Assembly: GCF_003334315.1 (NCBI RefSeq)
Contig: NZ_QOWR01000029.1
DNA length: 52,432 bases
Direction: 5' to 3' (one strand)
Source of the DNA: Escherichia coli
GTDB lineage: Bacteria > Pseudomonadota > Gammaproteobacteria > Enterobacterales > Enterobacteriaceae
In this document: positions 5,151 to 5,738 of the stretch, piece after piece
Numbering within the stretch: position 1 is the first letter of the stretch
Layout: each line of letters begins with the position of its first letter
Notes under the pieces: generated by a model
What the model was told of the DNA's origin: nothing
What the model saw: only the letters and a program-made list of their open reading frames with translations
The model's database searches: none
Translations under genes and position numbers: made by a program

Positions 5151-5738
5151 TTGTGACCATAAAACATTTATCAAAAATCTACTACTAGCATAGCAAAGCT
5201 ACAATTAACATAACCTTAATAGACCCAACATAAAGAATAATCTGAATAGCTGCTCTATTTATTTCCGCTTGTTCAAGTTAAATATTTCCGCGCATCGATT
5301 AAAGATGATGCGTCGTTTTCTGCGATGGGAATAGTCAAAAAAGAAAAACCAAGTCTTTTTTGATGACAAAATGCAATCAAGGAAAAATTATTTTATTTTT
5401 TAACGAGATACAACAATCATCTTAACGAAGTATATAATATATATCGTCAACCTATGCTCATATTAGATTATTTTTTGAGCGCACAGCCGCAGCTAACACC
5501 ATTGCAATTAACAAATTTGCATCAATCCACCATCAATTTGCACACATTATTATGTGATAATTGCCAACCGCTAAATATGCGTTTTGTTATCTATGTATAA
5601 AAACAGCAACTTCAATGTCTTAATGGCAGTTTTTCTTGATTTTAATCAGCATTCATCGCCAATTTATTGGGCATATTTTTTCCTTAAGCTTTAGGAATTT
5701 TTTATTATTTACTTTGGGGCCTGGAGACAGGAAAAATT

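Follow-up and report, generated by a model that had tools for sequence, protein, structure and literature searches.

The region between the divergently oriented genes pagP and dcuC of Escherichia coli was analysed within a stretch of 52,432 nucleotides (contig NZ_QOWR01000029.1 of assembly GCF_003334315.1), which is called the window in the following and is 100% identical to the E. coli K-12 sequence. This intergenic region (IGR) extends from 5151 to 5738, between the start codon of pagP on the minus strand (5150..5148) and the ATG of dcuC on the plus strand (5739), and corresponds to positions 655969-656556 of NC_000913.3, where the reference annotation, including its curated small RNAs (sRNAs) and small proteins, lists no feature. 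It is 100% conserved in K-12 strains and present as a single occurrence in 5,382 of 5,426 complete E. coli genomes. A first-pass annotation made from the sequence alone had described the spacer as unusually long (about 590 bp), strongly AT-rich and devoid of any open reading frame (ORF) of 60 or more amino acids, and this description holds in every respect. With 588 bp, the spacer ranks as the longest of the 35 IGRs of the window, against which its length was compared, followed by one of 378 bp, and the remaining eight divergent spacers measure 92-378 bp. Its GC content is 0.315 versus 0.519 for the window, a value matched by only 0.12% of all 588-bp windows, every one of which overlaps the spacer itself, and the largest ORFs within it code for 48, 39, 36, 36, and 35 amino acids. 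Tracts of at least four A/T residues occur three times as often as in the window as a whole (30.6 versus 10.0 per kb), and the AT-rich run quoted in the annotation lies at 5391-5446. The intrinsic curvature of the DNA, which had been proposed as a check, was predicted with two simple wedge models, used only for ranking within the window, and places the spacer among the top 0.2-0.5% of 588-bp windows. The spacer is composed of three parts, namely two short terminal promoter modules and, between them, a middle that evolves fast and seems to be free of genes.

This partition becomes visible in a comparison of 80 enterobacterial pagP loci, 49 of which carry dcuC divergently upstream and represent the genera Escherichia, Citrobacter, Salmonella, Enterobacter, Klebsiella, and Raoultella. 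The spacer is AT-rich in all of these genera, and an alignment shows conserved end modules and a non-conserved centre, with conserved blocks only at the ends. The spacer lengths are 281-305 bp in Klebsiella and Raoultella, 403 bp in Salmonella arizonae, 411-465 bp in Citrobacter, about 437 bp in Enterobacter, and 558-588 bp in Escherichia, and the differences fall into the non-alignable centre, which measures anything from about 0 to 300 bp depending on the genus. Since Klebsiella and Raoultella accommodate both promoter footprints in 281-305 bp, the earlier statement that the E. coli spacer is far larger than two promoters need is well founded. A few loci contain longer spacers of 569-1024 bp, which mostly show a higher GC content and, in most of the examined cases, carry stray ORFs. 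Spacers of 650-1024 bp with GC contents of 0.40-0.47 occur in some Citrobacter, Enterobacter, Kosakonia, Huaxiibacter, and Silvania strains (loci L010, L023, L030, L031, L042, L052, L053, L055, and L060). The Kosakonia spacer (L055) holds ORF fragments resembling an RND pump, indicating that other genera have acquired DNA insertions at this position.

The dcuC end spans about 5500-5738 and is made up of a class II-type FNR-activated promoter and a conserved block upstream of it. The FNR box TTGATTTTAATCAG (5636-5649, plus strand) differs by one mismatch from TTGAT-N4-ATCAA and is centred 96 bp upstream of the dcuC ATG, and an FNR-like box is found 92-106 bp from this ATG in 45 of the 49 syntenic loci. 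The box is the same as the predicted FNR site CTGATTAAAATCAA at v2 655281 that was found to be bound in chromatin immunoprecipitation (ChIP) experiments (Myers et al., PMC3688515), as follows from converting v2 positions by window = 5151 + 655779 - v2. The site was bound both in the wild type and in a delta-hns/delta-stpA strain, and dcuC was assigned to category 1 of directly FNR-activated genes, with a ChIP-chip and ChIP-seq peak and activation in RNA-seq; anaerobic expression was about 20-fold higher for dcuC and about 3.4-fold higher for crcA/pagP (PMC3688515). The scan for FNR sites recommended in the first-pass annotation therefore leads to a box with published in vivo binding. A -10 element of dcuC is predicted at 5672-5677 (CATATT, plus strand) from a block, GGCAcATT, that is conserved in all genera. 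This would place the transcription start near 5684, with the FNR box at about -41.5 and a predicted 5' untranslated region (UTR) of some 55 nt, and an anaerobic sigma70 ChIP-seq peak (v2 655235, window position 5695) coincides with the predicted promoter (PMC3688515). The ribosome-binding region GGAGACAGGAAA occupies 5723-5734 on the plus strand. Located about 127 bp upstream of the FNR box, the additional block ATTAACA-N7-GCATCAAT (5507-5527) is conserved in Escherichia, Citrobacter, and Enterobacter, partly retained in Salmonella, and absent from Klebsiella. Read on the minus strand, it forms a direct repeat of the ArcA/OmpR type (TGATGC-N5-TGTTAA), making it a putative site for a regulator of this kind; an ArcA site predicted by a position-weight matrix in the dcuC/crcA spacer was reported by Park et al., without an ArcA ChIP signal. 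The arrangement is like that of the class II FNR promoters of the dmsA, narG, and dcuB type in its 14-bp box bound in ChIP, in the FNR-dependent anaerobic induction, and in a spacing between box and -10 element that would put the box near -41.5, whereas it differs from them by the conserved block at 5507-5527 and by a start site that is only predicted.

The pagP end (about 5151-5245) consists of a compact promoter with in-phase PhoP-type half-sites directly upstream. The predicted -10 element TATGCT (5192..5187, minus strand) aligns with the mapped -10 element TATTAT of Salmonella pagP, and transcription is predicted to start near 5180, leaving a 5' UTR of about 30 nt. An anaerobic sigma70 ChIP-seq peak (v2 655742, window position 5188) is located at this element and rises from 37 under aerobic to 366 under anaerobic conditions (PMC3688515). 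The half-sites lie at 5236..5205 on the minus strand, spaced by 11 bp and in phase with each other; nearly all of the 49 loci carry them at a distance of 52-68 bp from the pagP ATG, with position and phasing kept across the genera. They include the repeat TATTAAGGTTATGTTAA (5221..5205), which ends 12 nt upstream of the -10 element, and an overlapping PhoP-box match one register upstream, TCTTTATGTTGGGTCTA (5236..5220), which carries two mismatches. As for the PhoP and ArcA scans that had been proposed, matches are indeed present at conserved positions, but these are degenerate and not statistically distinctive: the best matches to (T/G)GTTTA-N5-(T/G)GTTTA contain two to three mismatches, and 26% of 588-bp blocks do as well. 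No better ArcA-type direct repeat than TATTAAGGTTATGTTAA is found in the whole window, and this repeat also overlaps the best GAD-box-like match of the spacer, TTAAGGTTATGTTAATTGTA (14/20, minus strand). The assignment of a regulator to a given register of the half-sites is accordingly tentative, and other response regulators or counter-silencers probably make use of them as well. That PhoP acts at this promoter is suggested by previous work on relatives, in which phosphorylated PhoP shifted a fragment from upstream of S. flexneri pagP in gels, a delta-phoPQ mutation lowered pagP expression, and footprints of the Salmonella pagP promoter revealed two PhoP boxes near the start site; the footprinted Salmonella box ends in GTTAAG, as does the E. 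coli half-site. The E. coli promoter shares with PhoP-activated promoters, including that of Salmonella pagP (architecture IV), direct repeats phased by 11 bp, a weak -10 element without a good -35 element, PhoP-dependent expression, and the binding of PhoP observed by gel shift in Shigella. It differs in the degenerate half-sites (2-3 mismatches), whose PhoP register is putative, and in the distance of the best-phased pair from the -10 element, which is 12 nt in E. coli versus 23 nt in Salmonella.

Further candidate sites at the pagP end are less well defined. An imperfect palindrome within the promoter spacer, TAGCAAAGCTA (5191-5201), equals the SlyA consensus TTAGCAAGCTAA with one extra base and is a weak lead to a SlyA site. 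A scan of the spacer with the gap-free SlyA consensus gave no match with three or fewer mismatches, and three SlyA-like sites are reported for the pagP promoter (PMC4147861). A sequence resembling an RcsB box, AAAGAATAATCTGA (5232-5245), agrees with TAAGAATATTCCTA at 10 of 14 positions; both Escherichia and Citrobacter have conserved its block AATCnGA, and the orthologous sequence of Escherichia sp. E1V33 reaches 13/14, although the match as such is not distinctive, being equalled in 19% of 588-bp blocks. As far as sequence likeness can tell, the RcsB-box-like and GAD-box-like sequences may be the direct sites for the published induction of pagP by RcsB/GadE. A further binding site reported in this area, the sigma54 ChIP-seq site IS06 (TTGGTAAAGTTTTTGCT), falls within pagP itself, about 60-75 bp from the start of the coding sequence (5076-5092, minus strand, sense orientation), and probably explains the RpoN genomic SELEX (systematic evolution of ligands by exponential enrichment) peak that was assigned to the dcuC/pagP spacer.

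The first-pass annotation had also suspected H-NS binding and multiple regulator sites in the spacer, and published data agree with this. In vivo, H-NS is enriched over about 1.7 kb with the spacer in the middle (4647-6340), a patch composed of two ChIP-chip regions, v2 655584-656283 (window 4647-5346) and v2 654590-655558 (window 5372-6340), with a gap of 25 bp between them at 5347-5371 (PMC3688515, Table S3). Together these regions span the spacer, including the roughly 300-400 bp that separate the two promoters. The spacer was likewise flagged as H-NS-bound in vitro by genomic SELEX (Ishihama, PMC3946193). Chalabaev et al., screening for derepression of pagP, recovered insertions in hns and found a pagP-lacZ fusion to be 18-fold up in a delta-hns strain, an effect that was complemented, with SlyA acting as a counter-silencer (PMC4147861), and Szczesny et al. 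described RcsB/GadE as further activators of pagP that also operate by counter-silencing (PMC6106083). Derepression in delta-hns strains was encountered in the literature for pagP, and nothing of the kind was found there for dcuC. H-NS occupancy, FNR binding, the two sigma70 peaks, and the derepression of pagP in delta-hns strains are thus published in vivo observations, and earlier publications already account for the binding of H-NS, the FNR site, and the inputs of PhoP, SlyA, and RcsB. Taken together with the anatomy of the spacer, these data suggest a divergent control region with a promoter at each end and a gene-free centre bound by H-NS, a reading to which we assign a probability of roughly 70%. 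According to this model, the very AT-rich, A-tract-rich and predicted-curved centre of about 300 bp would serve as a binding platform for H-NS, and the H-NS patch would hold pagP silent for as long as the repression is not lifted by PhoP, SlyA, or RcsB/GadE. FNR would still reach its own site and turn on dcuC when oxygen is lacking. Because the centre would need only to be AT-rich and not to have a specific sequence, it should be free to vary in sequence and length and to tolerate insertion sequence (IS) elements.

Several points weigh against this model of an H-NS-bound, gene-free control region. Consensus scans for PhoP, ArcA, RcsB, SlyA, IHF, Fis, CRP, and NarL are not distinctive in the AT-rich spacer, and the same applies to scans for the high-affinity H-NS motif, RcsAB, and the GAD box, none of the scans having been used as sole evidence. 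The start sites of both pagP and dcuC are predicted rather than mapped, and dcuC is listed by Myers et al. with the remark 'TSS not in peak region', TSS standing for transcription start site, so its annotated start may be elsewhere (PMC3688515). The same authors give 'None' for enrichment of nucleoid proteins at the FNR site in their Table S6, despite the H-NS region in Table S3 (PMC3688515). Klebsiella manages without the centre, whose role in silencing is a proposal, as is the notion that its length matters for silencing. Finally, the divergence of the centre between E. coli lineages (14-18%, see below) exceeds simple neutrality, and relaxed constraint alone may not explain it.

The proposed organization has counterparts among the H-NS-silenced and counter-silenced promoters, such as those of Salmonella pagC and ugtL, the E. 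coli bgl operon, the 750-bp 'sensory integration region' of gadE, and the csgD-csgB spacer. Common to all of them are long AT-rich and curved upstream DNA, H-NS binding that extends into the flanking genes, strong derepression in delta-hns strains, relief by activators of the SlyA, PhoP, or RcsB type, and IS insertions that can alter expression. In contrast to these systems, the promoter modules of pagP and dcuC are short and conserved across genera, the genes are ancestral and not recent acquisitions, and the silencer-like centre, which Klebsiella and Raoultella can do without, is hypervariable in E. coli. No dissection of the pagP-dcuC spacer comparable to those of gadE or csgD was found in the literature.

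The suggestion that the spacer may contain an unannotated small transcript is not supported. A concrete candidate would be Ssr31, an sRNA of 295 nt read in the same direction as pagP, which was predicted in the pagP/dcuC spacer of S. flexneri 301 by a search for promoters and terminators and scored 'Yes' in reverse transcription PCR (RT-PCR), although the RT-PCR was not shown to be strand-specific and neither a Northern blot nor 5' rapid amplification of cDNA ends accompanied it (PMC4782007). The E. coli centre does contain promoter-like hexamers on both strands and a terminator-like hairpin, GCGCATCGATTAAAGATGATGCGT, followed by a T-rich tail (5290-5313, plus strand). However, the hairpin is not conserved, its 3' arm being mutated without compensation in O55:H7, O157, and EC20, and as the only terminator-like hairpin it lies upstream of the only promoter-like site on the same strand. 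This latter site, ATGACA-17-AATTAT (5363-5391, plus strand), faces dcuC and was predicted as a 'constitutive promoter' by RpoD genomic SELEX (PMC3946193), but the G of its -35 element is replaced by A in most other alleles and no sigma70 ChIP peak is located there; it is probably cryptic and silenced by H-NS. A second site facing pagP, TTAAGA-17-TAAAAA (5425..5397, minus strand), was also predicted in the RpoD genomic SELEX study (PMC3946193), belongs to the hypervariable part of the spacer, and shows neither a sigma70 peak nor a Cappable-seq start. Such promoter-like sites are not enriched either, with two found versus 5.0 expected, and they are mutated in other E. coli lineages. Genome-wide data agree with these features: anaerobic sigma70 ChIP-seq detected only two peaks in the spacer, one at each gene-proximal end and none in the centre (PMC3688515), the curated Term-seq 3' ends of Adams et al. 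from three conditions include none between v3 643497 and 657545, the latter being the cspE terminator, and Cappable-seq, considered only for the direction of pagP, shows no start between v2 653077 and 656393. With Rfam models, the spacer is blank at gathering thresholds, and relaxing the cut-off to E values up to 10 brings up nothing beyond sub-threshold noise. When folded in sliding windows, neither strand of the spacer leaves the z-score range of about +/-2; the only value below -2 (-2.5) covers the dcuC leader and the start of the coding sequence. As the centre is not conserved in sequence either, an sRNA such as Ssr31 appears very improbable.

A missed small protein is regarded as extremely unlikely. 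ORFs of 35-48 amino acids exist at 5454-5600, 5584-5694, and 5636-5755 on the plus strand and at 5259-5369 and 5273-5380 on the minus strand, and the frame at 5584-5694 seems to be conserved in some relatives. This conservation coincides with the DNA of the FNR box and the -10 element, however, and the frame begins with a TTG codon upstream of the predicted dcuC transcription start. The ORF of 48 amino acids is frameshifted by a 1-bp deletion in AR_0058, and those on the minus strand contain insertions or deletions in other strains. Apart from IS elements, the Prokaryotic Genome Annotation Pipeline (PGAP) annotates nothing under the match in any of the listed E. coli genomes, and the K-12 reference with its curated small proteins has none in the spacer.

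A view on the variation within E. coli reveals that the central part of the spacer (5296-5495) is a hypervariable island with at least five deeply diverged haplotype classes and cannot be aligned outside Escherichia, whereas the outer parts of the spacer are conserved. The island is sharply bounded, with 14-18% divergence between E. coli lineages compared with 0.3-2.7% in its flanks: K-12 and O55:H7 differ by 18% in the island versus about 0.5-0.7% in the alignable surrounding 10 kb (window 1351-10738), and K-12 and AR_0058 by 14.5%. Among 5,377 genomes, the central 200 bp fall into identity bands of at least 99% in 2,327 cases, 95-99% in 950, 90-95% in 532, and 80-90% in 1,568. Ten sampled alleles already fall into at least five haplotype classes that are 7-18% apart, with flanks differing by 0.1-2.8%. 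There is hardly any correlation between the distances of centre and flanks (r = 0.21), and the alleles and their flanks give conflicting phylogenies, as exemplified by K-12 and O157, which are 0.4% apart in the flanks and 17% in the centre, and by EC20, which shares the centre of O157 but not its flanks. In a comparison of 50 kb between K-12 and O157, the island is the most substitution-divergent segment of 200 bp, with 35 differences versus 20 for the next and a median of two, and only two indel-type differences in other spacers score above it. Neighbouring AT-rich spacers differ by just 0.8-3.4%, among them that of citC/dpiB, which lies under another H-NS ChIP region.

The simplest reading of this pattern is that AT-richness alone is constrained in the island and that recombination has shuffled old alleles. 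Alternatively, the centre may represent a strain-specific regulatory tuner, shaped by diversifying or balancing selection or by recombinational regulatory switching, whose alleles would set different expression of pagP and/or dcuC. The discrete identity bands and haplotype classes, the discordance between centre and flanks seen in K-12, O157, and EC20, and a divergence far beyond that of nearby AT-rich spacers bound by H-NS would all fit such a tuner. Yet the effects of the alleles on expression are a proposal, short recombination imports or hitchhiking could produce the same pattern without selection, and other 200-bp windows of the region reach 15-20 differences. For the lineage of PMV-1 and AR_0058, whose flanks are the most diverged (about 2.5-2.7%), the 14-15% divergence of the centre may be only modestly above the synonymous divergence as roughly estimated. 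A tuner is considered unlikely. We would call it quite unlikely that 5296-5495 is, more specifically, an allelic cassette in which selection maintains old, deeply diverged haplotypes that recombination shuffles separately from pagP and dcuC, with each haplotype tuning H-NS silencing or the activity of the cryptic promoters. If this applied, the degree to which lipid A is palmitoylated or succinate exported in a lineage would be set by its allele.

Intergenic regulatory switching, in which intergenic regions are exchanged, has been described for E. coli core genes. The island resembles these cases as a sharply bounded, highly diverged non-coding segment between near-identical coding flanks with a discordant phylogeny, but differs in that its alleles can still be aligned with each other, which speaks of divergence and not of replacement by unrelated DNA, and in that both core promoters are spared.

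The spacer is also a recurrent target of IS elements, as four independent natural insertions were found in three strains, three of IS1 and one of an IS3-family element. The IS1 copies are located at 5627-5635, just upstream of the FNR box, at 5300, where the insertion is accompanied by a deletion of dcuC-dpiAB up to citC, and at 5384-5390, and the IS3-family element lies near 5589-5604. IS5 insertions in the spacer have been published to arise repeatedly under kanamycin selection and to be linked to kanamycin resistance. Under the assumption of an allelic cassette, IS insertions, including the kanamycin-selected ones of IS5, would be a laboratory-timescale version of the same tuning.

It might also be argued that the extra length of the E. 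coli spacer represents the remains of a decayed gene or mobile element that have lost any function. The additional DNA is specific for Escherichia and cannot be aligned to other genera, the RND-pump-like fragments in longer spacers elsewhere show that DNA has come and gone at this site, and IS elements insert there repeatedly. The centre is nevertheless bound by H-NS in vivo and hence not inert, it shows no similarity to the larger spacers of other genera, it is single-copy in E. coli genomes, and it contains no long ORF remnants. It matches no phage record, and its sole matches in a plasmid collection are very large E. coli records of up to 4.9 Mb, apparently chromosomes filed under the wrong label. 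Functionless remains are thus an improbable explanation, and an origin of the centre from a mobile element was rejected, as neither phage nor genuine plasmid relatives nor any likeness to the longer spacers were found.

The control region bound by H-NS can be viewed as a textbook-style case of two ancestral genes of unrelated function, pagP modifying the outer membrane and dcuC exporting succinate anaerobically, that share an H-NS-coated spacer. The finding is real but ordinary, since the regulators are largely in the literature already and no evidence of a novel transcript or protein has emerged. New here is the dissection into three parts, according to which the functional promoters take up no more than about 90 bp at one end and about 110-240 bp at the other and the remainder is a sequence-unconstrained spacer that shrinks to nothing in Klebsiella. 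Equally new is the hypervariable centre, a recurrent IS target that merits modest follow-up. If the alleles of the island altered the expression of pagP or dcuC, they would offer a compact natural system for studying the evolution of silencer DNA and the strain-specific tuning of envelope remodelling.

Some further observations concern other parts of the window. Two other spacers exhibit large length differences between K-12 and O157:H7, namely fepB/entC (36823-37196; 374 versus 188 bp) and ahpC/ahpF (21955-22198; 244 versus 128 bp), and the relatively high GC content suggests that elements of the repetitive extragenic palindromic (REP) type may be present in one strain and absent from the other. 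The gene ybeM (deaminated glutathione amidase, about 2889-3676) is a frameshifted pseudogene in K-12 and intact in O55:H7, O157:H7, and AR_0058. The strongest Cappable-seq start in the vicinity (v2 656590, window position about 4340) falls about 75 nt inside cspE on the minus strand, and the sigma70 ChIP peak of cspE (v2 656472) lies upstream of the gene; the internal signal may be a mapping artefact caused by csp paralogues or an internal 5' end. The Rfam model of the cspA thermoregulator matches 4158-4600 on the minus strand with 124 bits, covering the cspE mRNA region including the 174-bp AT-rich pagP/cspE spacer. Other Rfam matches above the gathering score are the rnk leader (17586-17694), STnc70 in the dsbG/ahpC spacer (22907-23000), and ES036 in the entD/fepA spacer (51527-51568).

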